IMG/VR virus record: IMGVR_UViG_3300043418_000226
DNA: 64,000 nucleotides
Strand: one strand, 5' to 3'
Origin: a virus
Lineage: Duplodnaviria > Heunggongvirae > Uroviricota > Caudoviricetes
The notes beneath the pieces are model-generated. The model worked only from the letters and a program-made list of their open reading frames with translations. It was not told the origin of the DNA and did no database searches. The position numbers were made by a program, and so were the translations under genes. Shown piece by piece: positions 2,825 through 57,832 of the stretch (its first letter is position 1; every line of letters starts with the position of its first letter).

Positions 2825-2862
2825 CTTAGTTATCGATGTATTTATAGTAATAAAAACTATAA

Positions 2863-3546
2863 ATGAAGGTACTAGGTGCAAACGAAACGGGAAAAGGAAT
2901 TCTAATTGAATATGACGCAGGTCATGTATCTCCCGAAGAAAACAAGCAAATTATATCAGAAATGAAGAATATGGACTTTTCACAAGACCTTATTCTTTAT
3001 GCTGTTTTACAAAAATACGACACTCCAAATAAGAACGGTAGAATCTATCCCGAAATGTTACTTAAAAGGGAAAACGAAAAATACCAAACACTTATTAAAA
3101 AAGGTGGGGCTTTAAATGAATTAAATCACCCATCATCTTCTCTTATCGACTTAGATAGGGTATCACATTCAATTCTTGAAACTTGGTGGGATGGTAAAAT
3201 CCTAATGGGTAAAATAAAACTATTCACTTCTCCAGGTTGGAAGAAGATGGGTATTGTTAGTACTAAAGGTGACCAAGCTGCAATGTTATTAATGAACGGT
3301 GCCACGTTAGGTATATCTTCTCGTGGTGTTGGATCTCTTAAAAACGTTAGAGGAGAAAATATCGTTCAAGAGGACTTTGAGTTAGTTTGTTTTGATTTAG
3401 TATCATCACCTTCCACTCCCGGTGCTTATGTCTTTAGTGACCCTTCAGAAAGAGAACAATATCAAGAAGCAATACAAGAAAAACCTGCGGTTGACGACCG
3501 AATGAAAAAATTAATGGGTAAATTAGATACTTTTTTATCTAAATAA
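2863..3546 (+). CDS. gp21: Prohead core protease (T4 gp21-like)
   Basis: NKNGRIYP, ELNHP, VSH, GISSRGVGSL and FDLVSSPSTPGA motifs of the gp21/U9 family. Confidence 0.93.
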   Translation: MKVLGANETGKGILIEYDAGHVSPEENKQIISEMKNMDFSQDLILYAVLQKYDTPNKNGRIYPEMLLKRENEKYQTLIKKGGALNELNHPSSSLIDLDRVSHSILETWWDGKILMGKIKLFTSPGWKKMGIVSTKGDQAAMLLMNGATLGISSRGVGSLKNVRGENIVQEDFELVCFDLVSSPSTPGAYVFSDPSEREQYQEAIQEKPAVDDRMKKLMGKLDTFLSK

Positions 3547-3631
3547 CCATTTTTATTCGTGTAGATATATTGAAAAATAGAATTTTTCATTTTTCCGCAG
3601 TATTTATAAGATAATAAACAAAAATTTCACA

Positions 3632-4822
3632 ATGACTGAAAAATCAATTTTAGAACAAGCGTTACTTCAAGTACAAAATCTTGAAGAAGCCGTAAAGCAA
3701 AATGCAAAGGGTATACTTGCTTCAACTATGAAACAAGAACTGAATGACTTGCTTAAGGAATCATTGGAAGAAGAGGAAGAAGTTACAACCGAAGAGGAAG
3801 AGGAAACTCCAATCGACGAACAACCAAAACCTGAAGAAGAGGAAGACGATATGTCAGACGAAGAAGAAGAGGATAATGATACCGATTCTGATGATGCTGA
3901 AAATGACCAAGACCTCGATAACGATGAACCAAGTAAAGACATCGATTCATTAGATTCGGAAGAATCGGACGACGACACATCATTTGATGATATGTCAGGT
4001 GACGATTTTGGAAGTGAAGGTGATGAAGATGTTATGGACATGACCGGTGCTTCTGATGAAGAAGTATTAAAAGTTTTCAAAGCAATGAAACCAGAAGATG
4101 GTATCGTAGTTAAGAAAGACGGTAACAATGTTGAATTTGGAACAGGTGAAGACGACTACATTATCAAATTAGATAACGAAGAGGAAGAAGAAACTGAAAT
4201 GGCTGAAGAAGAGGAAGAAATGTCTAACGACGAAGAATCTCACTTATCAGAAGAAGAGGAAGAAACTATCTACGAAATCGAATTGGATGAAGAAGAGGAA
4301 GAAACTACAGAATCTGAAGAAGAGGAAGAAGTTGATTCCCCTGAAGAAGAAGTTGACGAAGCTGCAAGAACAATCGGAAATGGAGTTAGAGGACCGGCAC
4401 AAAAAATGAAATACAAAGCGGGTCGTCACGAAATGAACGAAGAAGTTGAAAAATTGAAAAAACAAAATGGTGAATACAAAAAAGCCTTAATTCTTTTCAA
4501 AGAAAAACTTAACGAAGTGGCAGTTTTCAATGCTAATTTAGCATACGCAACTCGTTTGTTCACTGAACATTCTACAACTAAACAAGAGAAATTGAACATA
4601 TTAAAGAGATTTGATTCAATTTCAACAATGAATGAGGCTAAAAATTTATTCGCATCAATAAAAGCTGAATTAGGAACTAAAACACCTGTAACTGAATCAG
4701 TAGTAGATAAAATCTCTAACGCACCATCAACATCATCTTCTCAAGAGGTATTAGCTGAGTCAAAGGCTTATGAAAATCCACAATTCAAGAGAATGAAAGA
4801 TTTGATGACAAAAATAAAATAA
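3632..4822 (+). CDS. Prohead core scaffold protein (gp22-like), highly acidic
   Basis: Sits between the protease and capsid genes; long Glu/Asp tracts, a coiled-coil C-terminus and many L/M-x-E sites (LKES, MNEE, LNEV, VTES, LAES). Confidence 0.8.
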   Translation: MTEKSILEQALLQVQNLEEAVKQNAKGILASTMKQELNDLLKESLEEEEEVTTEEEEETPIDEQPKPEEEEDDMSDEEEEDNDTDSDDAENDQDLDNDEPSKDIDSLDSEESDDDTSFDDMSGDDFGSEGDEDVMDMTGASDEEVLKVFKAMKPEDGIVVKKDGNNVEFGTGEDDYIIKLDNEEEEETEMAEEEEEMSNDEESHLSEEEEETIYEIELDEEEEETTESEEEEEVDSPEEEVDEAARTIGNGVRGPAQKMKYKAGRHEMNEEVEKLKKQNGEYKKALILFKEKLNEVAVFNANLAYATRLFTEHSTTKQEKLNILKRFDSISTMNEAKNLFASIKAELGTKTPVTESVVDKISNAPSTSSSQEVLAESKAYENPQFKRMKDLMTKIK

Positions 4823-4850: not shown

Positions 4851-6584
4851 ATGGGAGCATTATTAGAATCAGGTATGGTTGGTAACATCGGGTTAAAACA
4901 CCTTAGAGTTATCAAAGAAGATACAATTAAAAAATGGGATGACTTAGGATTCTTAGAAGGATTAGACGGTCACCAAAAAGATAACATCGCGCAATTATAT
5001 GAAAACCAAGCGTCTTACTTAATCAACGAAGCAGCCGTGGCTGATGCGTCTGGTTCATTCGAGACTGTAGTTTTCCCTATTATTCGTCGTGTGTTCTCTA
5101 AATTATTAGCTAACGACATCGTGTCTGTACAAGCTATGAACTTACCAATTGGTAAATTATTTTTCTTCATTCCTAAAATTCAGGAAAGAACTCAAGCAGG
5201 TGGTCACTATTCTCCATTCGGTATTCCAGGTGGTGCAGGTGGATCAAGTGCTTCAACTGGTTATACAGGTACTAACCTTTACGATCGTTTCTACGAAGCA
5301 GGTGATGGTAACTCTGCTGACACAGGTCTTTTTGATTACTCAAAAGGTCAATACTCAGCTGTTACATTATCAGGTGGTACTGTAGTTACTTTCTCTAACG
5401 GAGTAGTTTCTAACGTAACTAACGCATCTTTAACAGGAACTTCACAATCTTCATTGATTGTTAAATTCACTGGATTTACAAAAGATGGTCAAGGTAAATT
5501 AATCGGACCAAACGGTAACGCAATGGACACTGAAGAATTCTTAGCTTCTGCTACAGTAGTTGTTTCAGGTGTTTCTCGTAACTTTAACATCGTAACTCAA
5601 AAATACGGTAAAGGTATCGTTGAATACGGACAAAAATCAGCAGCATCAGGTTATCCTTCAGGAAACTTTAATGATATCTGTGATGAAGAAGGTTCTATCT
5701 ACGTAAGTGTTGACTTACAGTCTTACTCAGCAACTGCTGGTTTCACTAACTCAACATTATCTAACTCATTCGCAGCAACTGATGTAACTTTAAACTACAG
5801 AGTATATGATACTTTGGAATTTGAAGACGAAATCGGTGAGGTTTCTTTCGATTTACAATCAGTAACAGTTTCTGTAACTGAAAGAAAATTAAGAGCTTCT
5901 TGGTCTCCTGAATTGGCTCAAGACGTTAGTGCATTCCACAACATCGATGCTGAAGCTGAATTAACAGCTTTATTATCTGAGCAAATTGCAGCAGAGGTTG
6001 ACCGTGAAATCTTACGTGACTTACGTAAAGGTGCAGCATGGACAGCTAAATGGGATTATAATGAGTGGAAATACGGTGGAGCATCAGGTGCTACATTACA
6101 AGGTTACACTCAAAAAGACTGGAACCAAACTTTGGTTACTAAAATCAACCAAATTTCAGCACAAATCCACAAAACTACCTTAAGAGGTGGAGCTAACTGG
6201 GTTGTAGTTTCTTCTGAAGTTTCTGCAGTATTTGATGACTTGGAATACTTCCACGTTTCAAACGCAGCACCTGAACAAGATTCTTACAACATGGGTATTG
6301 AGAAAATCGGAGCATTGGCAGGTCGCTACCAAGTATACCGTGATCCTTACTTCCCAGCAAGTAAAATCTTAATTGGTCACAAAGGAAAATCGTTATTGGA
6401 CGCAGGTTATATCTACGCACCATACGTACCTTTACAATTAACTCCAACAATGTACAATCCGTTTACAATGACACCTATCAAAGGTATCATGACGAGATAC
6501 GCTAAGAAAATGGTTAATAACCGTTACTTTGGTGTAATCACAGTAAGTGGAATTCAAACATTCAGCTTGGATACTTTAAGATAA
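4851..6584 (+). CDS. gp23: Major capsid protein (T4 gp23-like)
   Basis: VSVQAMNLPIG, RKLRASWSPELAQD, LSEQIAAEVDREI, YAPYVPL and GIMTRY motifs. Confidence 0.96.
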   Translation: MGALLESGMVGNIGLKHLRVIKEDTIKKWDDLGFLEGLDGHQKDNIAQLYENQASYLINEAAVADASGSFETVVFPIIRRVFSKLLANDIVSVQAMNLPIGKLFFFIPKIQERTQAGGHYSPFGIPGGAGGSSASTGYTGTNLYDRFYEAGDGNSADTGLFDYSKGQYSAVTLSGGTVVTFSNGVVSNVTNASLTGTSQSSLIVKFTGFTKDGQGKLIGPNGNAMDTEEFLASATVVVSGVSRNFNIVTQKYGKGIVEYGQKSAASGYPSGNFNDICDEEGSIYVSVDLQSYSATAGFTNSTLSNSFAATDVTLNYRVYDTLEFEDEIGEVSFDLQSVTVSVTERKLRASWSPELAQDVSAFHNIDAEAELTALLSEQIAAEVDREILRDLRKGAAWTAKWDYNEWKYGGASGATLQGYTQKDWNQTLVTKINQISAQIHKTTLRGGANWVVVSSEVSAVFDDLEYFHVSNAAPEQDSYNMGIEKIGALAGRYQVYRDPYFPASKILIGHKGKSLLDAGYIYAPYVPLQLTPTMYNPFTMTPIKGIMTRYAKKMVNNRYFGVITVSGIQTFSLDTLR

Positions 6585-6600
6585 TCTTAAACGTGTATAT

Positions 6601-6635
6601 AAAAAACCCTCGAAGAAATTCGAGGGTTTTTTTTT
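6601..6635 (+). terminator. Rho-independent terminator after the capsid gene
   Basis: AAAAAACCCTCGAA-GAAA-TTCGAGGGTTTTTT followed by further Ts; GAAA tetraloop. Confidence 0.9.
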
Positions 6636-6639: not shown

Positions 6640-6670
6640 TTGGTTTATTACATAATTTTATTTATATTTG
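6640..6670 (+). promoter_or_regulatory. Bacteroidota-type promoter (TTG-N20-TATATTTG)
   Basis: TTG at 6640-6642 and TATATTTG at 6663-6670, 4 nt before the ATG at 6675. Confidence 0.55.
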
Positions 6671-6674: not shown

Positions 6675-6989
6675 ATGGCAGAAGTGGATTATAGTAAATT
6701 AAGATTAGACGTTTTAGAAAAGATGATTTACACAAGAGGAATCGAGTGTAAGATGAAAAAAGAGGAGATGGTTAAAATGTTGAAACTCGATGATGAGGGG
6801 AAATATAAATTACCCATGAAAGAGACAACCTATGAAAAATTTGAAAATGGTTTTAACGTAGGGATAGATTTAAGTAACAAATCACATTTGGTTCAAATCG
6901 GTAATCTCATCCTTAAAAAAGAAGCGAGAAACTTAATGAGATTCGCCAACGGTATGGTGTATTATTGGACAAAACAAAAACTAATATAA
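6675..6989 (+). CDS. Hypothetical protein, possible N-terminal HeH/SAP-like DNA-binding motif
   Basis: DYSKLRLDVLEKMIYTRGIECKMKKEEMVKML resembles the helix-extended-loop-helix pattern. Confidence 0.5.
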   Translation: MAEVDYSKLRLDVLEKMIYTRGIECKMKKEEMVKMLKLDDEGKYKLPMKETTYEKFENGFNVGIDLSNKSHLVQIGNLILKKEARNLMRFANGMVYYWTKQKLI

Positions 6990-8615: not shown

Positions 8616-9134
8616 TTATTTAGATTTTTTCCATCCACCACCTTTGGCTTTATAATGTTTTGCTGCCGCACCATTACAATATGCACTTGGACAAACATCA
8701 TATTTTGACCTCGCCCAAGCTAAAGATGATGCCCATAATTTTGGATTTGTTGGTGTGTTTTTACTTTCGTCAATTTCCATATCAACTGATTCGTCTTTAG
8801 GTTTTTTACCCTCTTTCTTCATATTGGTTGCAATTGCGGCTTGTTGTGATGGACTACTTGATTCATTTAAATCATTTTTTTTACTTTCATTCATAAAAAA
8901 ATCAAACACTTGGTCAACATTTTCTTTGGCACTTGATATGTGGTCATCTGCCCAATCATGACCGTTAGTTAAAAGGTCATTAATCATATTATGGTCAAGT
9001 TTTAATAACAAATCACATTGTCGTTTAATTTGTTCTAAATTACTAAAGAACATGTAATTTTCATTTGAATTCTCGTTTATAATTTTAGAAACAATTTCTT
9101 TAATTTGACTTTCTTTTAATTTAATAATTTTCAT
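8616..9134 (-). CDS. Modular protein with MKIIKLKESQ leader and C-terminal PTNPKLW...PSAY...YKAKGGGW module
   Basis: 172 aa; modules delimited by FMNE|S, LNE|S and IDE|S. The last module resembles a small basic domain widespread in large viruses. Confidence 0.6.
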   Translation of the reverse strand: MKIIKLKESQIKEIVSKIINENSNENYMFFSNLEQIKRQCDLLLKLDHNMINDLLTNGHDWADDHISSAKENVDQVFDFFMNESKKNDLNESSSPSQQAAIATNMKKEGKKPKDESVDMEIDESKNTPTNPKLWASSLAWARSKYDVCPSAYCNGAAAKHYKAKGGGWKKSK

Positions 9135-9146
9135 AATTATAAATAT

Positions 9147-10517
9147 TTATTTTTCGGATAATATTTCAAACTTTATCGGTTCATTATAGAAAATCTCTTC
9201 CGAATGAGTCAATCCTTTAATCTCAATTGAATATTCTCTTGGAATTAAGTATGATGTGTTAAAAGTAAATGAGTTTTCGTTGGTTACGTCTAATTGGGTC
9301 CAATCATTAACAATTACATCTGTGTGCCCTTCTTTAATAAACATACGATAATACACCTTATCAAATAACTGTGTCTTAGGTACGTTTATTGACCTAAATT
9401 TTACCACAACTTTTCTTAATTCTCCTCGTTTAATTTTTTCATTTTGTTTTATTCCAAAAAACTGAATTGAGTATCTTTCTAATTCTGTTTGATTTTCACC
9501 CACGGTGAACATTGCAGTGTATGGTTTTGGTATGAATTTTTGAGACACATCTGAAATTTGTACACCATCTAATGAAAGGTTTTTCCACTTATCATAGTAA
9601 AATCTTTTACCGTCACAAGTTACACCATCAACACCAAAGGTTACTTTGTAGACCCCCTTTTTAATTTTTGTTGTAGTTAAATTCCCTAAACCTAAAAGAA
9701 CGTTGTTACTTGAGTCAACAATATCAACTATTGGTAATTCATCTAAATCATATGGATTAGTACCTTTAGTAATGTACAAATAAAGATTTTGATTCATTTT
9801 TTCGACAAAATTATGTCTATTATCTTGAATTGTATCGGTGAATATCGATTCAACAAATGGTTCAAAAAACGTTTGGGTGTATTTGGTAAAGAAAGCAACA
9901 GATTGGTCCAATTCAGATGTTATATCTTGAAACATTACCGAGAAAGCAACTCCTAATCCATTATTAGTGTCACCCGAAATAAGAATACCGTTAATATAAT
10001 CAGTAATATCAACATCTAAGTTTTCGTCTCCGTTATCAAAGTGTTGAGTTGCAATTATTATTGGTGAACTTTCATAAACACCATTTGATGTCCAATCGTC
10101 AATACTTGTTCTGTGAAACCAGTTAGATGGTCTTTTATCAAATGTTTTATTACCGACGGTAAAATCAAACGATTCATCGTAGTCAAACCCAAGTCCTTCG
10201 TCCCACGACTCATTAATTTTAAAAATAATTAAATCAAATGAAGTGGCACGTTGTCTACCAGTACTTCTATTTTGACCTTTAAGACCTTCATCTCCAAAAA
10301 TGGTGTTGGTCATTCTAAGTTTATGTTTAGTGTCACTATCGACAACTAAATCACCATTAGTGACTTTATTAGTTAATTCACTTAAATCAACTTTAAATAT
10401 AAATTTAGAAAACCCTGAACCCCAAAATATCTCAGTGGTTGGATTTTTCGCAGTGTTAACCTGAGAATCCTTTATAAGGGTGTTGTTTTTTTCAAAATAT
10501 GAACGAAAATATGACAT
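9147..10517 (-). CDS. Hypothetical virion structural protein (beta-rich)
   Basis: 456 aa, adjacent to the spike-like gene and preceded by the TATTTATA motif. Confidence 0.5.
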   Translation of the reverse strand: MSYFRSYFEKNNTLIKDSQVNTAKNPTTEIFWGSGFSKFIFKVDLSELTNKVTNGDLVVDSDTKHKLRMTNTIFGDEGLKGQNRSTGRQRATSFDLIIFKINESWDEGLGFDYDESFDFTVGNKTFDKRPSNWFHRTSIDDWTSNGVYESSPIIIATQHFDNGDENLDVDITDYINGILISGDTNNGLGVAFSVMFQDITSELDQSVAFFTKYTQTFFEPFVESIFTDTIQDNRHNFVEKMNQNLYLYITKGTNPYDLDELPIVDIVDSSNNVLLGLGNLTTTKIKKGVYKVTFGVDGVTCDGKRFYYDKWKNLSLDGVQISDVSQKFIPKPYTAMFTVGENQTELERYSIQFFGIKQNEKIKRGELRKVVVKFRSINVPKTQLFDKVYYRMFIKEGHTDVIVNDWTQLDVTNENSFTFNTSYLIPREYSIEIKGLTHSEEIFYNEPIKFEILSEK

Positions 10518-10541
10518 CTTTTTTATTTTATAAATATCAAA

Positions 10542-14150: not shown

Positions 14151-14527
14151 TAAACTGTGTAATTAGATGTTTCTTCAGAAGGATTATTCATTAATTTGTC
14201 AAGAATTTCTCTATCCTCATCTGAAAGTGTTAGTTTACCCATTGGGCCACTTTTACCGCCCACAGATTGGGTTTGTTTTAATAGTAAACCTTGTAATTTT
14301 ACTAAAGATATTTTCTTTTCTGTACAATCATTCAAAATCTTCTGTTGCTCCTTAATAACCGGACCAATTACACTCATGTCTTCAGCGTCTTTCATGAAAG
14401 TTAACATTTTCTTTGTTATTAAAGACGCCGTATTCTTTTGTTCTACAATATCGTTATAGATTTCCTGCATTAATGCTAATGCGGAATCAACCTCTAGGGA
14501 TATTAAATTTCTTTTAGGTCTGCTCAT
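14150..14527 (-). CDS. Hypothetical helical protein
   Basis: 125 aa; its stop overlaps the next start; preceded by TATTTAT. Confidence 0.55.
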   Translation of the reverse strand: MSRPKRNLISLEVDSALALMQEIYNDIVEQKNTASLITKKMLTFMKDAEDMSVIGPVIKEQQKILNDCTEKKISLVKLQGLLLKQTQSVGGKSGPMGKLTLSDEDREILDKLMNNPSEETSNYTV

Positions 14528-14541
14528 ATCAATAAATAGAT

Positions 14542-15240
14542 TTATTCTAAAAATCCACCCAAAATTCCATCATACAATTTTTTAAATCGTTTAAGGGATA
14601 CTCTAATTTCTTTAGTTGATAATGAGGTCATCTCCCTTAATGAAAGTAATATTAAATTTTTATTGAATTTATTACCATCTCCTACTTGGAAAATTTTATC
14701 GATATTACTGAAAATTTCAAGTAACGCATATCCTAATTTTCGTTCATTTTCGGTTAAAGTTTCAACTTCCATAAAATCTTCTAAGGTTGTTGTTAATTTG
14801 AGAACGACAGCCGAGTAATCGATAGAATATGCGTCTATTACATAAGATAAATCCGCCCTACCTTCAATATCAGAAGATATGTCATCATATGAAACACTAC
14901 GATTAGTTTCCTTAGTATCTTTTTGAATTGCACCCATAAGGTAATTTTTACATATTGTGCCAAAGTATGAATATGCCTTATGATTTTTGGTATGGTCAAA
15001 TTTATTGATTTTAGTAATTAAAAACGATAGTGTGTCGTTATGAATCTCTTCAAACTCTAAATCCTTTCTATACAGTTTATAACGTCGAATTATACTTTCG
15101 ACCATTATTATTAGGGGTTCTCTTAAGAATTCGTTGAATATCTTATTTTTTTCGGCATCGTCATTACTTTCAAGGTAACTAACTACCGCCTTTTCTTGAT
15201 CCTCCCCAAAATATATTTTTTGGGTTCTTGGTCTTGGCAT
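14542..15240 (-). CDS. RNA polymerase sigma factor (gp55-like late sigma candidate)
   Basis: Region-2-like segment DTLSFLITKINKFDHTKNHKAYSYFGTICKNYLMGAI (sigma FD..K..F.TY pattern) and a C-terminal helix-turn-helix-like segment. Confidence 0.65.
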   Translation of the reverse strand: MPRPRTQKIYFGEDQEKAVVSYLESNDDAEKNKIFNEFLREPLIIMVESIIRRYKLYRKDLEFEEIHNDTLSFLITKINKFDHTKNHKAYSYFGTICKNYLMGAIQKDTKETNRSVSYDDISSDIEGRADLSYVIDAYSIDYSAVVLKLTTTLEDFMEVETLTENERKLGYALLEIFSNIDKIFQVGDGNKFNKNLILLSLREMTSLSTKEIRVSLKRFKKLYDGILGGFLE

Positions 15241-25359: not shown

Positions 25360-25372
25360 ACTATTTATAAAC

Positions 25373-43173: not shown

Positions 43174-43194
43174 TCTTTAATAGGAATGAAAAAG

Positions 43195-44980: not shown

Positions 44981-44997
44981 TACATCTATTTATACGT

Positions 44998-46953: not shown

Positions 46954-46987
46954 TTTAAATTAAACCTATTTATTATAAAAGAAAATA

Positions 46988-49900
46988 ATGCCAAGTAACT
47001 TAGATTTTGATTCAACCAAAAAGTTTAGAGATTATATATTAGGTAAGACCTTAAATCAACCTAATGGTCCACAAACATTTACAAGTGGAGCATATACTGT
47101 GCAAAATTTAAGTGATGCACCAAATAAGAATCAAGGAAATGTTGACAACAACAGAACTAACGATTTATTACGAATCAATAGTACTAACACTTTTAAACCA
47201 ACTGAATTTTTTGTAACAGATACAATTGATACATTACCAAGAAAGGCCGATTTATCGTTGTATCCTTATTTTGTTGCTAATAACCATAATTTAATTGGTA
47301 TTATGGGTTCTGAAGATAATACAACAGAATCTGAATTATATAAATTCGCATCATCGTATATTAAATTAGATTCTAATGGTCCGGTTTTATCAAGGATTGC
47401 TCGAAATATCGATAAAGCAACAAATGGTAAAGTAAGATTATTAGATGCGTTAAATGGTAACACAACAACCGCAATAAACATTATTACAGGTAGAGAACCA
47501 TTAGTTGAGGCTAATTACGATATTACGGTGGCTAAAACATTACCGGGTAAGGGTATTGATTTTTTACAAACAGTTTCGGGTATTGAATTTCCATTTAGTG
47601 AAATACCGGGTGATTATTTAAGTAATCCGGCAAATCCAATTAATTATCGACCAACAGCATCTACTGAGGTGGGTAAATTATGGCAAGATGTGACAGGAGT
47701 GTTAGGTTCGTTAGTCGGTATTCAAAGAAGACCTAAACTATCGAGAAAACCCTCTGATCTTTTAATTGAATATATGGGTCAGGGTCAAAAAAATGCCCTA
47801 TATCATAACTTATCATTTTCAAAATACGCACCTAACTACACAACAACTGCAAGGTCACAAAATACATCTAAAATTTTTAATTTTGTTGATAAAACAGCAC
47901 AAGGTATTAAATCACTATTAGGTGAAGAGGCACCTGCAGGAATTGCATATATTGGTGACGATAGAGGAAATGATGTAAAATATGCGATGAACGACTTCAA
48001 TGATAGACCAGTAAGAAGTAGTTACTATCTTTCATTAATGTTTGATGAAGTTTCTGCAAATTTATTTCATAAAGGAAAAAATATTACAGAGGGTGGGTCA
48101 ATTGGGGGTAACCTAACTTGGATATCTAAAAATTCAAAAAATAAATTAGGTGAACACAATGCAGAATGGTCAGGAGAAAGTAGTGTTTTACAAGAAACAC
48201 TTTCAACAAAATATGGTTTTAGAGAAGACTCAATATTAGGTCACACTCAAGAAATATTAGATTCAATGCCTTCTGACGGTGGCGCGGCACGTTCACATGT
48301 TGCAAATGTTATTGACCAAACAAGTAGAGTGTTTGGTGATGGAGACGTAAAAATATCGAGAGGTTCGGCTGTAAAATTTGTTAATAATTTCTCAGGTACT
48401 GAAAGTGGTGTGGAATATTGTAGAGTATGGACCAAAGATAGGTCATACATGAACTATTCGGACACCATGAAAAGAACTGCAAATATTAGAAAATACGATG
48501 GTAGTGTAATGGGAGGCCAAAGTAGACCTTGGAATTTAAACATTGCACCCATGTCGAACGGTAAAAAATCATTTGACCAATCAACAAATATTTTTAACAA
48601 TTATCCGTATGGTGGTGGATTCTATGCTAAAAAATACATGTTCTCAATTGAGAACTTAGCGTGGAAGACATCAAATACTGATGGTTTTAGAGTTACGGAT
48701 TTACCTGCATGTGAAAAAGGTAATAACGGTGGTCGAGTAATGTGGTTTCCACCATACGACTTAAAAGTATCAGAACAAAATAGTGCAAGATGGGAAGAAA
48801 ATTCATTTTTAGGAAGACCTGAACCAATATATACGTATCAAAATACATCAAGAACTGGTCAAGTATCATTTAAAGTGGTTGTTGACCACCCGAGTATTTT
48901 GAATTTATTAGTTAGGGAACACTTTAAAGGAATGTCCGACGAAGAATCGGATAATTACATTAATGCATTTTTCGCGGGTTGTGTTGATTTAGATTTCTAT
49001 TCATTAATTCAAACATACACAACGTTAGATAGTGATGATATAAAAAGAATTAAAGAATACCTTAATGCGGGTAAAGACCAACAAACAATAAAGAAATTTA
49101 AGTACGTAACTGAACAAGTCGAAACAAAACAAAACAATACAAACGGAAATAAAACAATACAACCAACACCATTTGATAATATTTTTTATTTTCCAAATGA
49201 CGTACCTAAATTTAACGTAAATAATAAGGCAATTGCAACAAGTACATATGGAGTTATAACTTCAGAATATTTAGCCGAAAGAACTAAATTTATTTCAGAT
49301 TTAGATAGTGATTTAGTAAATTTATTATCTGATAATAGTCAAGGTGCCTTAAAAGATATTAAAACTATCTTTAATATGACAAAATCGGAAGTATTACCTT
49401 TCAGTGGTGTGTCAATAAATTTAGTTAAAGATAACATATCTTCAGGTTTTGATACTGTTCAGAAAAATTATAACGATTTTTCATTAAAAGTGGAACAATT
49501 AAAAAAAGATATATCAGGTAAGACGGTAACAGAAGCAGAGTTAAGAATTTCAAGTTCAACATCTGAAGTTGCCACCGATAAATATAATTTTTATTTAGGA
49601 GTTAGAAGAGGATATAGTATCCTTTTTGAAACTTTAAGTAAATTATCAAATGGGGTTACTATAGATGAAAAATTCATTAATTGGTTTACTGTAGATTATT
49701 TAAAACAATTTGAAAAAACAGGTTTAAATAATGTAACATTAAAATATCCATTTAAAGATTTAGGATACGATACTGAAGGTACATTAAATGTAATTTTTAC
49801 AACTACAGGAGAAAATACCATATTACCAAATGGAGGAGGAGAATCAAACATAGATTGTAAACAAGTTATTAATACAAAAACTGGTTTAAAAATCGAAGCG

Positions 49901-51712
49901 CCCGTTGCCTTTTTCTGTAGACAAGCGAACGTTAAATTAAAATATAATAAAACAGATAAACCACAAGATATCGTGGTTAAGATACCTAAAATTAAAGTAG
50001 AACCGGACGGTGAAACCACAACAGGAGGAACACCAAAACCATCTATTGATGTAATGAAGAGAATTATAATGAAAACTCTTTCTGAATGTCATTACTTTAA
50101 AAAATTAGAGGAAGATTCACCTGTGGCGTTTAAATCTTTAACTGAAAAATTAAAATATTTTCACCCTGGATTCCACTCAACAACACCTGAAGGTTTAAAT
50201 AGTAGATTAACTTTCTTATTACAATGTGTAAGACCTGGTGATACTATCCCTATTAAGGGTTTAGCTGACAATACAGACGTTGGTGCTAGAAATACAACAT
50301 TTGGTCCACCACCTATCTGTGTATTAAGAATAGGGGATTTCTATCACTCTAAAATCGTTATTAAAGACGTTAACATAAGTTACGATGATAGTCCTTGGGA
50401 TTTAAATCCTGAAGGTATTGGTGTACAACCAATGATTGCAACTGTTACTATGCAAATTGCTTTTATTGGTGGACAAGGTTTAGAGAAACCGGTGGAAAGA
50501 TTACAAAATGCGTTATCTTCAAATTTCTTTGCTAACACAGAAATGTTTGATGAGAGATCACAATCTACCGCAACAACAATCGGAGGAGAAGATAGAGAAA
50601 AATTCACTAAACAATTTTTAGAGGAACTACAAAAAAAACCTACTTTCCAAGAACCGGTAGAAAATCCGACACCAGCAACACCGGCACAGGGAGTATATAT
50701 TGGTACGTTATCGGGAACTAAACTAAACTATGATAATCAAATTAACATGGTTTACAGTTCTATAGGTCAATATTTAAATGTTTACCAATCTACATATAAT
50801 GAAATTATAAAAAAATATGGTTTAAAATTAGGTAGTCTATTTTTTTCACCAACCTATAGAAAGATAAAAGATTTAGAAGTTTATAGTCAAGGGAATCAAG
50901 TCACTCCACCTAAGATTGAGATATTAGGACAATATGACCCAATAAAAGATTTATCATTTTATTCAAGAGGTTTTAAAGCGGCAATGGAAAGTAAAATTGA
51001 GTCGACGGATTTAACAACATTACTTGGATTTAATGAAGGGTTAAAATCAGAATCGTCAATCATTAATTCAAATAATATCTTAAAACCATTTGTAAAGAAA
51101 TTTATAAATGAAACGATTGATGGTTTTACTGAGATAAAATCAATAAAAAATTTAGAATCGGCAAGAAATCAAATTATATCGGCAATTGATAATGTTAATT
51201 ACCTTGTTAATTATGTACGTGACGGACAAATTAGCGGGACTACATTCACTCAAGCTAATTTATCGGGATATACATATGATAAAATTTATAATGAATATTC
51301 TAATTTGATTGATTACGTAGTAAAGGAACATAGTAACTTTACTGAAGATTTAGATAATTCATTAAATTTTAACTCTCCGGTTATTTCAGACTCTATTTTA
51401 TCGGAATTTTTATCTATATTGTTACAAGGAGAAAAAGAAAATATTATTAAGTTATATGAATCTGACAAAACGGTTTTCACCGATAAAGTAAGAGAAAAAT
51501 TAAGTAAAATATTTGAAAAATTCATTACTGTTCAAAAAGAGAAAAAATTCAAATTAGGTAAATCCCCGATTAGAAAAAACAGTAAAAGTGTTGAATTTGA
51601 AATAGGTTCAACGGCACTAATAACTGACACGGTTGAACAAGGTGTATTAACTAATATTTTCTTAAGTAAAAATAAACTTGGGAAAAGTGTATTAAATTTT
51701 TATAAACCATGA
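46988..51712 (+). CDS. Giant baseplate/tube-initiator protein (gp48/gp54-like domains) with a possible OmpA-like insertion
   Basis: Tube-like segments WFPPYDLKVSEQNSARW...FLGRPEPIYTY..TSRTG.VSFKVVVD and PPICVLRIGDFY.SKIVI..V.ISY. The middle FYFPND...YNFYLGVRRG..I segment is OmpA_C-like. Confidence 0.55.
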   Translation: MPSNLDFDSTKKFRDYILGKTLNQPNGPQTFTSGAYTVQNLSDAPNKNQGNVDNNRTNDLLRINSTNTFKPTEFFVTDTIDTLPRKADLSLYPYFVANNHNLIGIMGSEDNTTESELYKFASSYIKLDSNGPVLSRIARNIDKATNGKVRLLDALNGNTTTAINIITGREPLVEANYDITVAKTLPGKGIDFLQTVSGIEFPFSEIPGDYLSNPANPINYRPTASTEVGKLWQDVTGVLGSLVGIQRRPKLSRKPSDLLIEYMGQGQKNALYHNLSFSKYAPNYTTTARSQNTSKIFNFVDKTAQGIKSLLGEEAPAGIAYIGDDRGNDVKYAMNDFNDRPVRSSYYLSLMFDEVSANLFHKGKNITEGGSIGGNLTWISKNSKNKLGEHNAEWSGESSVLQETLSTKYGFREDSILGHTQEILDSMPSDGGAARSHVANVIDQTSRVFGDGDVKISRGSAVKFVNNFSGTESGVEYCRVWTKDRSYMNYSDTMKRTANIRKYDGSVMGGQSRPWNLNIAPMSNGKKSFDQSTNIFNNYPYGGGFYAKKYMFSIENLAWKTSNTDGFRVTDLPACEKGNNGGRVMWFPPYDLKVSEQNSARWEENSFLGRPEPIYTYQNTSRTGQVSFKVVVDHPSILNLLVREHFKGMSDEESDNYINAFFAGCVDLDFYSLIQTYTTLDSDDIKRIKEYLNAGKDQQTIKKFKYVTEQVETKQNNTNGNKTIQPTPFDNIFYFPNDVPKFNVNNKAIATSTYGVITSEYLAERTKFISDLDSDLVNLLSDNSQGALKDIKTIFNMTKSEVLPFSGVSINLVKDNISSGFDTVQKNYNDFSLKVEQLKKDISGKTVTEAELRISSSTSEVATDKYNFYLGVRRGYSILFETLSKLSNGVTIDEKFINWFTVDYLKQFEKTGLNNVTLKYPFKDLGYDTEGTLNVIFTTTGENTILPNGGGESNIDCKQVINTKTGLKIEAPVAFFCRQANVKLKYNKTDKPQDIVVKIPKIKVEPDGETTTGGTPKPSIDVMKRIIMKTLSECHYFKKLEEDSPVAFKSLTEKLKYFHPGFHSTTPEGLNSRLTFLLQCVRPGDTIPIKGLADNTDVGARNTTFGPPPICVLRIGDFYHSKIVIKDVNISYDDSPWDLNPEGIGVQPMIATVTMQIAFIGGQGLEKPVERLQNALSSNFFANTEMFDERSQSTATTIGGEDREKFTKQFLEELQKKPTFQEPVENPTPATPAQGVYIGTLSGTKLNYDNQINMVYSSIGQYLNVYQSTYNEIIKKYGLKLGSLFFSPTYRKIKDLEVYSQGNQVTPPKIEILGQYDPIKDLSFYSRGFKAAMESKIESTDLTTLLGFNEGLKSESSIINSNNILKPFVKKFINETIDGFTEIKSIKNLESARNQIISAIDNVNYLVNYVRDGQISGTTFTQANLSGYTYDKIYNEYSNLIDYVVKEHSNFTEDLDNSLNFNSPVISDSILSEFLSILLQGEKENIIKLYESDKTVFTDKVREKLSKIFEKFITVQKEKKFKLGKSPIRKNSKSVEFEIGSTALITDTVEQGVLTNIFLSKNKLGKSVLNFYKP

Positions 51713-52035
51713 GTAGAGGGTATTTCGATAGGTATCAATATTTTGTAACGGACGGAGAATTTAAAATAGTTCCCGGAATTGAAATCCCAATCAAGGGAAC
51801 AGATAAGTATTTCCAATATAAAAGAGGTAAAGAGAGATTAGATAAAATTTCACAAGAATATTACGGTACACCGGTGTATGGGTGGTTAATTATGTTAGCA
51901 AATCCATTATCGGGTAGTGTTGAATTTGAAATACCTGATAATTTTTTATTAAGAGTACCATTTCCTTTAATTAGCACTTTACAAGATTATAAAAGTGCTA
52001 TAGAATTGTATAAACTATATTATGGGGAACAATAA
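51709..52035 (+). CDS. Baseplate wedge LysM-like protein (gp53-like)
   Basis: ERLDKISQEYYGTPVYGWLIMLANP. Confidence 0.8.
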   Translation: MSRGYFDRYQYFVTDGEFKIVPGIEIPIKGTDKYFQYKRGKERLDKISQEYYGTPVYGWLIMLANPLSGSVEFEIPDNFLLRVPFPLISTLQDYKSAIELYKLYYGEQ

Positions 52036-55000
52036 ATTAAATGAGAATGAAAACATATTAGTTAAGGTCGATCAGAATAATTTATTCTTTATCGACCCTA
52101 ATAGTGTGGTTAATGATGGTGTTATAGAACCAAGAGGACTCAAACAAGAGAATTTGGTTATGTACGTCAATCTTGAAGCGGATTTAATTCCAAGATCAAT
52201 TTTAAGCGCGTCTGGTGACCAAACATCAACGGGAGAAGTTGTATCAATTGCAAAAGGGACACTTAATATTTTAAAAAATCAAGGAGGGGGTGATTTTGAT
52301 TCTTCATGGACTAATGCATATAATGGTAAAGACGAAACCATTTTTGATGCAAATGGAAAAACCACCGGTAATCTTAATGTTAATAACGTAAGTTATGACG
52401 GTACCGCCCAATCGTTTGGTATCGATTCAATTAACATTAACATTAAGGGGGCAAATTTCATTCCACAGATTAACATTAACTTTATTGATGTTAGAGGTAA
52501 GACTTTATTTGAATCTCCTGAAAACTCACCATATAAGGCATTTTTCCATTTACCGTGGCCAATATTTTATTTAACAGTTAAAGGATTTTATGGTAAAGCG
52601 ATAAGATATCGTCTACATCTTACTAAGTTTACTTCTAAATTTAATGAAGGTAATGGAAACTTCGAAGTCACAACAACTTTTGTAGGTTCAACATATGCGT
52701 TCTTAAATGATATTCCATTAAATGGAATATTAAATGCACCATATATGTTTGCAATTGAACAAGATGTACCAACATCATTAAATCCATTAACTGGAGTTCA
52801 AGAAAAGAAAATTTCCAAAACATCAAAAGGATATACTATGTTGAGGTCGGTATATGCCGAATACAAAGAAAAAGGACTAATAGATAAAGACTTTCCGACT
52901 AAAACATTAAGAGAATTATTAGTAATATCAAAAAGTTTAGATAAGGTACTTGAAAAAGAAATTTTTAGTGGTGTTGTTGATTTTAAAGTATTTGCGGGAT
53001 TAAAAGAGTTCGAAAAATTAATTCAAGATTTTGAAAATGCCGTAAGATTATGGGGAGGGACGAATTTAAATCCACAAACAGTAATTGTTAATGGTGTTAC
53101 TTATAACCCATTAACCGGACCTAAAAAAAATACATTAGACAACGTTATTGGAACAAAAGATACCAAAACATTAGAAAATCTATTAACCATTTACCCTGAA
53201 CATTTAACAAAATCTAAATTGTTTGTTGAAAATTTTAAAAATCAAGGGGGAGTTGACTTTAAAAAGGAAACTTTTAACTACATCAATACAATAAAAGACG
53301 TAAACAAATACGTATCAAAAATTGATGGAGGACTTTATGCGGTTGCGTTACAGTCATTATTAAAAGATATATTCGATATTCAAAGAACGTTCGTAGCTCA
53401 AAGAGACAAATTAGAACAAACGGTTGAATCTCGAATGAATGACATTATTAAAGATAAAAATAAAGGTATCGGTTTTGAACCAACCATTAGAAATATATTT
53501 GCCGTTGTTATGGCAAATGCTGATGTGTATATTAGATTATTAAAAGATGTACATAAAAGGTCATTCGATTCAGGACCTCAAAGAAAATTATTATTAAAAG
53601 GAAACGGATTTTCAGATGAAACACCTAAAGAAGATTCAATATATCCTTGGCCTGAAATAAAAAAAATAACCGCAGACGCAAAACAAAAAGTGTTGGCATA
53701 TCCTGGCGACCCCGATTTACAAAGTAAATTACGTTCATATGATAAAACGTTATGGCCGGAAGTGGATTTTGTTGAAAATTATCAGGCAATATCAACCAAG
53801 AAAGTCGATACAAATTCAAGTAAAGAAGGTAGTGTAGGTAACGTTAATTTTGTATTTGAAAATAATTCACAAGAAGTAAAAACAAATAAAATATCAACAC
53901 TATTTGAGGCGGGAATTAATTTTCCATATTCAAATAAGTCTGTATCATCAGTTTTATATGAAATTTGGGAAAGAGCAAGATACTCAACATTATTTGATAC
54001 GTTTAGTAACAATACGGTTGAAGAACTTGCCAACGTGGAAATTAAAAATTTACAAAGTTTATTAACTGAGGATTTCGATGTTATAGGTGTCTTACAATCT
54101 ATAACAGATAGAACTAAATTACAAGAATATCTTCTTTCATTTTCACCATTTGAGAGATACCCATATTATCAAGATAAAATTGCAACGGTACCATACATAA
54201 AAGATTTAACAACAAATTCATTTAATGTTGAATCGTATTTTGGTATAACTGAAAATGCCGATAATGATAGTTTATTTACAAAATTAAGTAATAATCTGTT
54301 AAATTACACGACAGAGGATTATCGAACAAACATATATCCGTTCAATTCTGATTTATATCTTTCTTATTTAAATAAAAGTAAATTTGATAAAACAGATTTA
54401 GAGTTAAAAGGTATATTAAATGTAAAAACCACTGAGGGGTTAATTAGTAGTCCAATTAATCCGTTATTTTGGGTTAAAAATGGAAGTACCAATAATCTTT
54501 TTAATCAAGATTTTAGATTATTAGATTCCTCGGCAAATATATTAAATACCCCATATTTCCATAACCAATTGTTTAATGATTTTAATAAAACAATGCCACA
54601 TGGAAAATATGTAGGTTCGGCCTATTTGTTATTAAATTCTTTACCCTTTTATGACTTAGAAGATAACATTCTTTTCGGTTTAAACACCACCAGATTATCA
54701 ACAATTTTTAGAGAGGTGGGGTCTTCACATTACGTTCCGTATCATTTAATGTTAAAATGGGGTTCATTGTATCATAGGTATAAAACAAAAATACTTGAGG
54801 GTACTGACATACTTGACGGATTTTTAAATGTCTATGGGGTAACACAACCAATTAATAGAGATACATTTTTTGATACCACGACTGGAACAACATTTAACGC
54901 AACTGCGGATACAACAAATGGTAGAACAACGTTTAATGTCCTAAGTTCAAATAAAAAAGACATAGGATTACATCCATTTTATGATGGTATATTTCATCAA

Positions 55001-57799
55001 ATTGTGAATGGTTATAGTCATTATAATATTGCGTTAGGTAATTCTTCATACTCAGGAAACACTGAAAATTCAATCATTAATTCAAGAGTTAAGGAGCTAA
55101 AAGATGGATTTAGATATTGGACAAATTACGTTGATAATTCGGTAGAAACTAACGGTAAAGATAACTATTTCACATTATTACCATGTGATGGAGGAAATAA
55201 AGTGGATAATTTAGATTTTAAACCACTACAGATTACATTTCCAATAACAACATTTACAAATAATACGTACGAATCAAAAGAACAAAATAATTTTAGAATT
55301 ATATGGAAAGATGAGGTTACTAACGTAGATTATAGTGGTAAAACATTCCCTTCGGCATATGAATATAATAGAACGTTCGTAACGGGAGATACTCGTAATA
55401 GTTTTGATAATCTTTATGGGATAACAGATAATTTTAGAAAAGTTACCGATTTAATAGCAACTTTCAGTCCCGCAATTTTAGATGAGTTTGAAAATTGTTT
55501 TTTAGAATTTGCCACAGAAAAATTAAACGAGGAGGTATCACATAAGAGGTTCCCGATGTTTAGTGGTGGGACTAATAATGTACATTATGTTAGATATGAC
55601 AATTTCCAAGATTTATTAAAATCAATTGTAACGATTGATAAAAATAATGACGATAAAGGAACCACAATTGAGACAACGATAAATTCTATTAAGACAAAAC
55701 AAAGTAATAAATTATCCACAATTACTGGTGATATGTTACATAGTGATAATTTAATTAAAATCACGATATCAAATCCAAAAGAAATTGATGCCCATGTTTG
55801 GTATGGATTCTCTAATTTAGATAATGTTAATTCATTTACATATAATAATTACGACGCGGCACAAGATGTTGATAATTTAAAATACATTGATTTATATGTA
55901 GGTCAAGATATTGACGGAAAGTATAAACAATTTTTTGTAACTAATAATGTAGAGTTAAGTGAGGACAATGTTCTACAATTTAGACCATTGATTTTAATAT
56001 TTGCTGGTTATCTTAAATCGGGAGGAGCAAATAATAAAAACCAATTTCAAAGTTACATGGTAAATAATGTATTATTAAATGCAGAGAATAGATTCTCAAT
56101 ATACCTTAATCGTTTAATACCTCAATTACAAACTTTAAAAATTAACGACACGGCAAATCAAGTGACTATTGTAAATGGGTATAACGATACTCCATTGAAA
56201 CTTGAGTTGTATAATTTCTTTAAATCGTTTAACGATAAATGGGTTGGAGGAAATTCAATAGGTCAAAGATTACTATTAGAAGAATTTTTATTTTTAGATA
56301 AGGCAAATAAAGATATCGGTTCTAAGGCGTTTTTAAGTTTAGAAAAGTTATTACCATTAGACGATTCTAAAAATGACAAACAAAACTTATATGGGGTTAT
56401 TTCGATGTTAATTCAAGGAAGTGGGTTTGATATGAGAGGTTTACCTGCTTATGTAAATTTCTATGGAACAAACAATTCAAATAAAACTAAATTAACACCA
56501 TCTAAAAAGTTAGCCCAAAATTTATTTGGGACATTTTTAGATGTTGATTATCAAGAATCGTCACCTAAGATTATTATTCAATATACGGGACCAACATCTA
56601 AACATTTAGAGATGTCCGACATTGATGATAAATATAAATTTAAAAATGATAGTGGTAACTTATTTAGTGGACCTAATAGTCCATTAGTAATTACAATACC
56701 CGAAGTTTTCAAAACTGGAGATTTATCAAAGTCAAATAAAGTAATTGCCTTTGAAGTTAGTGTCGGTGACCAAAATCAAAGTATGTTCAAAGGAGTACAG
56801 CTTGACCAAACGTCAATAAAAAATACAACAGAATCGTTCGGTGTAATGGAAAATTTAGGACGTTCAGAGACGGGTAACGGAGCACATCAAATAGATATTG
56901 GTTTGTTTGACATTTACAGACAATCTTCATATACATGTGAAGTTACTATGATGGGTAATGTGATGATTCAACCTACAATGTATTTTTATCTTAAAAACAT
57001 ACCAATGTTTAGAGGATCGTATTGGATTACTGAAGTATCACATAATATTAAGAGTGGTAACATAACAACAACTTTTAAGGGCACAAGAATACCGTACGCG
57101 TCATTACCTGACCCTAAAGATTCTTTCCTTTCAAGTTACAGGTCACTATTTGATAGAATTACTAAAAGTGCGTTGGCTAGAGTTCAAGAAGAAAGTTTAA
57201 GAATATCAGGAGCAACTAAAAATGAAATTACGATTACGACCAATCAAGGTATTTTTACTGTGGACATGGGTGGAAGTGATAAAAAAATAAAAGGTGAGGA
57301 AATAACAACCGACAGTGGGGTTAGTGATTTCGGTGTACAATTTAACGGGTTCAATGGTGAAAAATATGTACAGAAAGTTAATTATAAAGGTAAGGAAGTC
57401 TTTAGAGCAATTGCCACAACAATGGGAGGTAAGGATAACCCATTAGATGATTTTATTGATATGACTATATTATGTAGAGCATCTGTAACTTCGGCAAGGG
57501 TCACTTGGGATTTCATGAAAGATTTAAGTAAAACGAATAGGTTCTATTCAACTAAATTTAGATTAGCGTCGGTAAGTGCGGATAAAATAATAACGGGAAC
57601 GACAACATTCATAAACCCTAATAATGGAGATAAACAAATAACTGTTCCACCGGTTCATATATTATCTGGTAATAAAAAAGTCGAAGGTGCAATTAGTGCC
57701 GGTCCATCTGTTGATGGTTTTGGTATTAGTATGTCCCAAAAATTAATGACTGATTTAGGATTATATAATGGACAAGTGGTTTATTTTACTATAAAATAA
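52022..57799 (+). CDS. Giant baseplate hub protein (gp27/late-control D-like domains)
   Basis: 1925 aa. The C-terminal CEVTMMGNVMIQPTMYFYL...GSYWITEVSHNI..G..TTTFKGTR is typical of hub proteins. Confidence 0.65.
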   Translation: MGNNKLNENENILVKVDQNNLFFIDPNSVVNDGVIEPRGLKQENLVMYVNLEADLIPRSILSASGDQTSTGEVVSIAKGTLNILKNQGGGDFDSSWTNAYNGKDETIFDANGKTTGNLNVNNVSYDGTAQSFGIDSININIKGANFIPQININFIDVRGKTLFESPENSPYKAFFHLPWPIFYLTVKGFYGKAIRYRLHLTKFTSKFNEGNGNFEVTTTFVGSTYAFLNDIPLNGILNAPYMFAIEQDVPTSLNPLTGVQEKKISKTSKGYTMLRSVYAEYKEKGLIDKDFPTKTLRELLVISKSLDKVLEKEIFSGVVDFKVFAGLKEFEKLIQDFENAVRLWGGTNLNPQTVIVNGVTYNPLTGPKKNTLDNVIGTKDTKTLENLLTIYPEHLTKSKLFVENFKNQGGVDFKKETFNYINTIKDVNKYVSKIDGGLYAVALQSLLKDIFDIQRTFVAQRDKLEQTVESRMNDIIKDKNKGIGFEPTIRNIFAVVMANADVYIRLLKDVHKRSFDSGPQRKLLLKGNGFSDETPKEDSIYPWPEIKKITADAKQKVLAYPGDPDLQSKLRSYDKTLWPEVDFVENYQAISTKKVDTNSSKEGSVGNVNFVFENNSQEVKTNKISTLFEAGINFPYSNKSVSSVLYEIWERARYSTLFDTFSNNTVEELANVEIKNLQSLLTEDFDVIGVLQSITDRTKLQEYLLSFSPFERYPYYQDKIATVPYIKDLTTNSFNVESYFGITENADNDSLFTKLSNNLLNYTTEDYRTNIYPFNSDLYLSYLNKSKFDKTDLELKGILNVKTTEGLISSPINPLFWVKNGSTNNLFNQDFRLLDSSANILNTPYFHNQLFNDFNKTMPHGKYVGSAYLLLNSLPFYDLEDNILFGLNTTRLSTIFREVGSSHYVPYHLMLKWGSLYHRYKTKILEGTDILDGFLNVYGVTQPINRDTFFDTTTGTTFNATADTTNGRTTFNVLSSNKKDIGLHPFYDGIFHQIVNGYSHYNIALGNSSYSGNTENSIINSRVKELKDGFRYWTNYVDNSVETNGKDNYFTLLPCDGGNKVDNLDFKPLQITFPITTFTNNTYESKEQNNFRIIWKDEVTNVDYSGKTFPSAYEYNRTFVTGDTRNSFDNLYGITDNFRKVTDLIATFSPAILDEFENCFLEFATEKLNEEVSHKRFPMFSGGTNNVHYVRYDNFQDLLKSIVTIDKNNDDKGTTIETTINSIKTKQSNKLSTITGDMLHSDNLIKITISNPKEIDAHVWYGFSNLDNVNSFTYNNYDAAQDVDNLKYIDLYVGQDIDGKYKQFFVTNNVELSEDNVLQFRPLILIFAGYLKSGGANNKNQFQSYMVNNVLLNAENRFSIYLNRLIPQLQTLKINDTANQVTIVNGYNDTPLKLELYNFFKSFNDKWVGGNSIGQRLLLEEFLFLDKANKDIGSKAFLSLEKLLPLDDSKNDKQNLYGVISMLIQGSGFDMRGLPAYVNFYGTNNSNKTKLTPSKKLAQNLFGTFLDVDYQESSPKIIIQYTGPTSKHLEMSDIDDKYKFKNDSGNLFSGPNSPLVITIPEVFKTGDLSKSNKVIAFEVSVGDQNQSMFKGVQLDQTSIKNTTESFGVMENLGRSETGNGAHQIDIGLFDIYRQSSYTCEVTMMGNVMIQPTMYFYLKNIPMFRGSYWITEVSHNIKSGNITTTFKGTRIPYASLPDPKDSFLSSYRSLFDRITKSALARVQEESLRISGATKNEITITTNQGIFTVDMGGSDKKIKGEEITTDSGVSDFGVQFNGFNGEKYVQKVNYKGKEVFRAIATTMGGKDNPLDDFIDMTILCRASVTSARVTWDFMKDLSKTNRFYSTKFRLASVSADKIITGTTTFINPNNGDKQITVPPVHILSGNKKVEGAISAGPSVDGFGISMSQKLMTDLGLYNGQVVYFTIK

Positions 57800-57832
57800 G
57801 AATATTAACAATTTAACGATATTTATTGAAGT

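Follow-up and report, generated by a model that had tools for sequence, protein, structure and literature searches.

A candidate late-promoter box, TATTTAT(A/T), in a jumbo phage of Bacteroidota and its relatives

We analyzed a 64,000-nt stretch of a tailed-phage genome (IMG/VR record IMGVR_UViG_3300043418_000226; hereafter, the window), in which the word TATTTAT, followed by A and less often by T, recurs just upstream of start codons. We think it likely that this word is the core, and apparently the sole element, of a late promoter that has no -35/-33 partner and is read by the phage sigma factor encoded at 14542-15240. With this sigma bound, host RNA polymerase core would open the DNA at the box and begin transcription 4-6 nt beyond the 3' end of the 8-mer. 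Since the sigma gene lacks a TATTTAT box of its own, its product would appear ahead of the virion proteins and then turn on their genes, as in phage T4. A late-promoter role had been put forward in an initial annotation of the sequence, and it is supported here by the conservation of the word, the absence of a -35 element, divergent pairs of boxes, avoidance of the word on both strands inside genes, and the classes of genes that carry it.

Enrichment, conservation and gene classes

Counted in the sense orientation and no more than 50 nt 5' of a start codon, TATTTAT occurred 21 times in the window, as opposed to 3.07 ± 1.71 times, with a maximum of 10, in 2,000 dinucleotide-preserving shuffles of the same upstream regions. 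It was the most enriched upstream 7-mer (p = 3e-23). Its total count in the window was lower than predicted from composition (37 versus 53 ± 7), and the 2.5 kb of intergenic DNA (78% A+T) held 22 copies against 6.5 ± 2.5 in shuffles. Antisense copies upstream of starts numbered six, mostly partners in divergent pairs. In a complete 335,630-bp relative, TATTTAT was again the top upstream 7-mer, with 87 sense and 16 antisense copies (p = 6e-66). Thus, both an enrichment over AT-matched background and a strand bias that follows gene direction, as expected from the initial annotation, were found.

The word is sharply defined. When the window and the 335-kb relative were pooled, 77 of the 126 copies of TATTTATA were located sense-upstream, in 3% of the sequence space. 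In the same data, single changes at box positions 1, 2, 5, 6 and 7 abolished the enrichment, position 3 was weakly tolerant, and position 8 tolerated letters in the order A>T>G,C. The late-promoter word of T4, TATAAATA, occurred sense-upstream only 3 times in the window versus 13 times for TATTTATA, and 14 versus 77 times in the pooled set.

The word is invariant across diverged relatives, and its flanks drift. Homologs of the protein encoded by gene 3632-4822, which precedes the major capsid gene, were 57-73% identical to it in the relatives found, and the 7-mer in front of this operon was unchanged in 30 of 32 distinct upstream sequences from those relatives. The sigma gene and gene 14150-14527 are separated by 14 nt. 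About 70 relatives kept TATTTAT here, at an unchanged spacing from the ATG, with the spacer letters and the eighth letter of the box free to vary. The nearest cultured relative was Flavobacterium phage vB_FspM_immuto (hereafter, immuto), whose sigma (gp118) is 27% identical to that of the window. There, TATTTAT was once more the top upstream 7-mer, with 33 of its 106 copies sense-upstream (p = 5e-22), as were 24 of the 45 copies of TATTTATA. According to the GenBank annotation, its targets in immuto include the terminase, Gp20 portal, PhoH, virion protein, sheath, tube, baseplate hub and tape measure genes. Among three loci with distant sigma relatives (32-34% identity, L188-L190), two had the box before the gene downstream of the sigma and the third had it at a divergent junction; these loci are too short for statistics.

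The box marks genes by functional class. In the window, it was carried by 5 of 6 annotated virion-gene units and by 1 of 7 clear replication or nucleotide-metabolism units (Fisher p = 0.025). The dCMP deaminase was left out of this count as ambiguous because the box of its unit overlaps a host-type box. Overall, about one third of genes carry the box, and genes inside operons do not. The initial annotation described most targets as structural. This holds for the prohead protease, the capsid operon, the head-tail adaptor-like gene, the tail sheath and the tail tube; it does not hold for the PhoH and SNF2 helicase genes, and roughly half of the boxed genes are unannotated.

All 18 TATTTAT(A) sites listed in the initial annotation are present in the sequence, although four minus-strand positions (9138, 10529, 24272 and 38251) seem to be one base off, being the plus-strand starts of the 8-mer TATTTATA. 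The reported gap of 3-38 nt to the start codon is correct when measured from the 8-mer, and the variant reported before rpsU could be located. Two sites, at 23018 and 6659, were added to the list (Table 1).

Table 1. Boxes and their candidate reader in the window. Coordinates are those of the 8-mer in plus-strand numbering; gaps run from the end of the 8-mer to the ATG.
Feature	Coordinates	Strand	Context
TATTTATA	2839-2846	+	16 nt 5' of prohead protease gene 2863-3546
TATTTATA	3601-3608	+	23 nt 5' of gene 3632-4822; then Gp23 gene 4851-6584 and terminator 6585-6635
TATTTATA	9138-9145	-	3 nt 5' of gene 8616-9134; short-spacing class
TATTTATA	10529-10536	-	11 nt 5' of gene 9147-10517
TATTTATT	14531-14538	-	in 14-nt gap between sigma gene and gene 14150-14527; 3 nt from ATG
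TATTTATT	18757-18764	-	35 nt 5' of PhoH-like gene 17987-18721
TATTTATT	23018-23025	-	3 nt 5' of gene 22637-23014; inside 3' end of upstream gene
TATTTATA	24272-24279	-	15 nt 5' of gene 23516-24256; first half of divergent back-to-back pair
TATTTATA	24297-24304	+	5 nt 5' of gene 24310-25359; divergent partner of 24272
TATTTATA	25362-25369	+	3 nt 5' of gene 25373-27088
TATTTATA	28491-28498	+	19 nt 5' of gene 28518-30611
TATTTATC	35357-35364	-	4 nt 5' of head-tail adaptor-like gene 34240-35352
TATTTATA	38251-38258	-	7 nt 5' of SNF2-type helicase gene 36492-38243; divergent pair
TATTTATT	38279-38286	+	5 nt 5' of gene 38292-38804; divergent partner of 38251
TATTTATA	40280-40287	+	36 nt 5' of tail sheath gene 40324-43173; terminator 43177-43226
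TATTTATA	43445-43452	+	38 nt 5' of tail tube gene 43491-43979; terminator 44002-44050
TATTTATA	44987-44994	+	3 nt 5' of gene 44998-46953
TATTTATT	46967-46974	+	13 nt 5' of 1574-aa gene 46988-51712
TATTTATT	57820-57827	+	5 nt 5' of gene 57833-58036; terminator at end of unit, 59045-59088
Variant TACTTATA	2298-2305	-	4 nt 5' of rpsU 2102-2293; host-type TATATTTG upstream, 2311-2318(-)
TATTTATA	6659-6666	+	before gene 6675-6989; overlaps host-type -7 box TATATTTG, 6663-6670(+); class ambiguous
Phage sigma factor	14542-15240	-	232 aa; candidate box reader; region-2 domain and C-terminal helical domain

The window has a G+C content of 31-33%, is densely coding, lacks Shine-Dalgarno sequences and shows A-rich stretches 5' of start codons. 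Its portal is of the T4 type (Pfam Gp20, E = 5e-66), and so is the 577-aa major capsid protein encoded by gene 4851-6584(+) (Pfam Gp23, E = 8e-73). Besides these and the tail sheath, prohead protease and tail tube genes, it encodes a DNA polymerase, SSB, a recombinase, an exonuclease and a DnaB-type helicase. The gene of ribosomal protein bS21, rpsU, lies amid the head genes on the opposite strand. This layout matches that of the "bS21 phages", which infect Bacteroidetes in fresh water; the paper that defined them nowhere mentions promoters, motifs or sigma factors (PMC9723584). Relatives of the window in IMG/VR reach 335 kb; a megablast search of phage records with 24 kb of the window gave no match. 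The literature that we searched yielded no paper describing a TATTTAT/TATTTATA box in a phage, nothing relevant on immuto or on late promoters in connection with Flavobacterium, and nothing on gene regulation in this phage group.

Some neighboring features were also recorded. The 396-aa product of the box-bearing gene 3632-4822(+), directly upstream of the capsid gene, had no family match and may be a scaffold or decoration protein. Two giant genes, of 1574 and 1925 aa, lie within 46988-57799(+), 3' of the tail genes; the 1574-aa protein had no match in PHROG or Pfam. A hairpin, TCTTTG-CTAAAAA-CAAAGA (40255-40279(+)), abuts the late box of the sheath gene in a gap shared with the minus-strand open reading frame 40039-40221.

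Architecture of the proposed promoter and candidate readers

A logo of 108 sites contained no informative position between -25 and -3 relative to the box. The sole conservation upstream was of a purine and a non-T directly 5' of the box, and no -35/-33 partner, TTTG included, was present. Host-type pairs, TTTG-N17-23-TAnnTTTG, were enriched separately, in front of genes that lack the late box (16 of 49). The late box differs from TAnnTTTG at positions 6 and 8, and variants nearer to the host consensus were not enriched.

Several promoter-like sequences were seen alongside the late box. Bacteroidota boxes of the host type lie 5' of rpsU and of gene 6675-6989 (Table 1). The early gene array of immuto (L178, 9400-16000) contains more than 20 near-identical promoters of the form GTTG-N18-TATATTTAGGTAT-CAATAATTAAAAC. 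We considered TACTTATA/TTCTTATA as a second phage-specific class and rejected it, as these sequences resemble host-type promoters, TTTG-N-TATTTTTC. The sequence ATATTTTTCTTATA is common to the upstream regions of the glycosyltransferase gene 19851-21077(-) and the SSB gene 59135-59980(+), has TTTG about 20 nt further upstream, and recurs in the 335-kb relative; it looks like a variant of the host-type promoter (TATTTTTC) for early or middle genes.

In the family of promoters recognized by Bacteroidota sigma-A, TTTG is found at -33 and TAnnTTTG at -12 to -5 (PMC9723704). The late box is likewise 8 bp long, begins with TA and has T at positions 5 and 7. Both probably lie equally far from the start site, and the host polymerase core would be shared. 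The two differ in that the late box has A at position 6 and A or T at position 8, rather than T and G, and lacks the -33 TTTG. The host-type pair is present separately in these phages, for example at rpsU and in the early array of immuto.

The resemblance to T4 late promoters is closer. In T4, TATAAATA at about -13 to -6 is read by gp55 together with the co-activator gp33 and the gp45 clamp. Both systems use an 8-bp, A/T-only, -10-like box without a -35 element, and both place it before virion genes in phages with T4-type capsid and portal proteins. Both have a small sigma, gp55 being the closest, though weak, match for the region-2 domain of that of the window. Six of eight letters are the same, among them the two A's, at -12 and -8, that become buried in gp55. 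The initial annotation described the box as the reverse complement of the T4 promoter, which is literally true, but the box is more aptly viewed as that of T4 with T in place of its two central A's. The differences are the central TT instead of AA, the C-terminal domain of the 232-aa sigma, which gp55 lacks, the failure to detect gp33 and gp45 homologs (see below), and a Bacteroidota host without Shine-Dalgarno sequences, with the box often only 3-5 nt from the ATG, unlike T4 late promoters. The system fits best as a variant form of T4-type late transcription, with an altered box, a two-domain sigma and a Bacteroidota host. A third point of comparison is Bacillus phage SPO1, in which the phage sigma factors gp28 and gp33/34 redirect the host polymerase to phage promoter classes for later genes; promoters of the SPO1 sigma cascade have both -35 and -10 elements, unlike the late box.

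The product of 14542-15240 had been annotated as a phage sigma, and this assignment is confirmed: it can safely be called a sigma70-family factor. The Pfam Sigma70_r2 match was weak (E = 1e-3), with 20 of 54 family members matching and a best value of 4e-7, as was the match to PHROG 234, "late sigma" (E = 4e-4). T4 gp55 was the best sequence match in PDB (E = 0.004). The predicted structure (predicted local distance difference test score, 91) was aligned with 48,000 PDB representatives. For residues 9-131, gp55 (7d7d_F) was the top match (Z 10.7, 115 residues, root mean square deviation 4.1), tied within 1 Z with region 2 of SigB, and the top matches were all sigma region-2 domains. Residues 139-232 matched region 4 of sigma-H/sigma-E weakly (Z 5.4-6.1), and Pfam region-4 models matched none of the 54 family members. 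Foldseek searches of PDB gave weak, full-length alignments with sigma factors. On these sequence and model comparisons, the protein may tentatively be placed as a relative of gp55.

Gp55 flips the non-template bases A-12, A-9 and A-8 of TATAAATA into pockets formed by Y97, N13/H95 and T99, respectively (PMC7892883). In a weak alignment with gp55, the window sigma retains R57, F86 and Y97, whereas H95 is replaced by Y and T99 by G. The changed residues of the A-9/A-8 pockets would be compatible with a box that differs at its two central letters.

A gene for a small helical protein always lies 3' of the sigma gene, behind a late box, in the window (14150-14527(-)), in about 70 relatives, in immuto (gp117) and at L188-L190. 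At L188, the nearest word before the gene that follows the sigma is TATAAATA, not TATTTAT. These small genes are barely alignable between lineages, similarity to distant syntenic genes being borderline (E about 0.06). The protein encoded by 14150-14527 is a possible partner of the sigma.

Several observations weigh against a T4-like late promoter read by the window sigma. A profile of the sigma family matched bacterial SigA (E = 8e-4) better than gp55 (E = 0.24), which is why kinship with gp55 is only tentative, and the Z scores of the structural match to gp55 fall within the range of helical domains. The sigma has an extra C-terminal domain though no -35 element is seen. The gp45 clamp models PF09116 and PF02916 had no match in the 335-kb relative or in immuto, and the 125-aa sigma-adjacent gene, considered for a gp33-like role, had no sequence match in PDB; very diverged homologs of gp33 and gp45 could still be present. 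The PhoH and SNF2 helicase genes carry the box, and the baseplate-hub gene of the window does not. Since PhoH is boxed in immuto too, PhoH and the SNF2 helicase of the window may be late, and possibly virion-associated, in this lineage. With strict T4 geometry (box at -13 to -6), +1 would fall on the A of the ATG if the 7-mer ended 6 nt upstream, and boxes at 3-nt spacing would initiate within the ATG; the start distance must then be taken to be shorter or flexible. Finally, we infer late timing and start position from sequence.

A further difficulty is that the 335-kb relative encodes a second, canonical sigma70-type factor of 269 aa (214427-215236(+); Sigma70_r2, E = 7e-18), in which regions 2.3/2.4 and 4.2 are clearly recognizable and which could be the box reader instead; its gene is not found in the window. 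Because relatives encode this second sigma, the identity of the reader is a matter that we infer. A promoter read by this textbook region-2 and region-4 protein, or by host sigma-A with a phage activator, would fit the features that TATTTATA shares with the host TAnnTTTG (TA at positions 1-2, T at positions 5 and 7) and the overlap or adjacency of late and host-type boxes at rpsU and at 6659; moreover, the link between the window sigma and the box is a prediction from sequence. We nevertheless consider a different reader unlikely. No second sigma was detected in immuto by Pfam Sigma70_r2 or by the family profile, yet immuto has the box before its late genes. That favors, without proving it, the view that the window-type sigma reads the box. 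Upstream of genes, words changed at position 6 or 7 toward the host consensus showed no enrichment, and the late box lacks the -33 TTTG, whereas the host-type pair is separately enriched. The window-type sigma is also strongly conserved among relatives, at 80-90% identity versus 57-73% for the protein of 3632-4822, matching the invariance of the box. A phiKZ-type polymerase is an unlikely reader as well: the model of phage multisubunit RNA polymerases, PF00562, had no match in the 335-kb relative, and the verdict is no firmer because such enzymes are very diverged.

Evidence for a signal in DNA

If the word acted in RNA, as a translation enhancer, a means of ribosome recruitment without Shine-Dalgarno sequences, or a processing or stability site, its proximity to start codons in a host group that does without Shine-Dalgarno pairing would be explained, as would the presence of a phage bS21 proposed to favor phage messages (PMC9723584). 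The initial annotation had offered translation enhancement as its alternative. We regard any such role as highly improbable. In the 335-kb relative, intragenic TATTTAT occurred 71 times in the sense and 56 times in the antisense orientation, whereas shuffles of synonymous codons gave 125 ± 9 and 102 ± 7, respectively. Among 21 words of the same composition, it was the most avoided inside coding sequence, about twofold on both strands. Avoidance on both strands points to a DNA signal active in either orientation, since an RNA signal would not matter on the antisense strand. Some other words also deviated in the coding regions of this genome: AATTTTT was avoided on both strands (ratio about 0.7), and TAAAATA, the reverse complement of TATTTTA, was over-represented (ratio 1.48).

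The placement of the word is also at odds with a role in RNA. Its distance to the ATG varies from 4 to 43 nt, it is confined to a class-dependent third of genes and absent inside operons, and all genes share another, A-rich upstream word, AAAATAAA. The divergent intergenic regions 24256|24310 and 38243|38292 are only 48-53 nt long and are filled by back-to-back box pairs about 17-20 nt apart. Transcripts of both directions must start in these gaps, which contain no other candidate start signal, so the pairs there point to start signals. In addition, the capsid operon, the sheath gene and the tube gene are each arranged as a box, one or more genes and a terminator; the 3601 box, genes 3632-4822 and 4851-6584 and the terminator behind them look like a single late unit. 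This arrangement agrees with RNA mapping in which the capsid gene and its upstream gene were co-transcribed and the region was not one operon (PMC9723584).

The least tenable explanation, a by-product of AT-rich intergenic composition acting on a word made purely of A and T, was tested and rejected: shuffles peaked at less than half the observed count, same-composition and single-mismatch words were not enriched, and the word is conserved letter for letter in diverged relatives whose flanks vary.

Spacing, predicted leaderless messages and bS21

Neither in the window nor in the 335-kb relative did the 7-mer end closer than 4 nt to the ATG. The spacings peaked at 4-6 nt (9 of 21 sites in the window, 33 of 87 in the relative), and a second, broad group fell at 11-26 nt. 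ATG is the start codon of each of the nine short-spacing genes of the window. In relatives, the N-terminal residues encoded by the gene after the sigma, 14150-14527, are kept in frame from the box-proximal ATG.

The sigma-A box of Flavobacterium psychrophilum lies at -12 to -5, and leaderless messages make up only 5.5% of the total (PMC9723704). If the same geometry holds, +1 would fall on the A of the ATG wherever the 7-mer ends 5 nt upstream. At the nine sites of the short-spacing group, the transcript would thus start at or within 1-2 nt of the AUG; at the remaining sites, it would have a short A-rich leader. Many late mRNAs are therefore predicted to be leaderless, probably, and it is reasonable to expect leaderless late messages from the roughly 40% of sites that lie 4-6 nt from the ATG. 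The likeness to known leaderless mRNAs, such as lambda cI transcribed from pRM and those of F. psychrophilum, is the box distance that places +1 on the A of AUG. The difference is one of scale: about 40% of one promoter class here, a share taken from spacing alone, versus a few percent of genes.

The rpsU gene itself has variable signals. At the position of the variant box, relatives have TA[C/A/T]TTAT, with the canonical word in some, and a conserved host-type TATATTTG box upstream. The rpsU gene of the 335-kb relative has a canonical short-spacing box 5 nt from the ATG. No bS21 gene was found in immuto, and the short-spacing share differs between the two lineages: 38-43% in the bS21 jumbo phages versus 5 of 33 sites in immuto. 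One scenario is that about 40% of late messages are leaderless and that the phage bS21, for which a role in favoring phage messages has been proposed (PMC9723584), helps ribosomes to favor late messages with no leader or a very short one. Taken as a whole, this scenario, built from spacing and gene content, is doubtful.

These phages belong to a group that is very abundant in lakes, and a cultured test system exists in immuto growing on Flavobacterium sp. LMO8. In public metagenomes, near-identical relatives of the sigma number in the thousands, and its family forms more than 1,200 clusters at 50% identity. A sharp word of 7-8 letters would allow late units to be annotated from sequence in hundreds of uncultured Bacteroidota phages. 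The box and its putative reader would also provide a naturally occurring counterpart, with altered specificity, to gp55 and its promoter in T4, in which, by alignment, two central box letters and two pocket residues differ. If the leaderless messages are real, the virus makes a large leaderless class in a host where such messages are rare (about 5%), which may bear on why phages carry a ribosomal protein.

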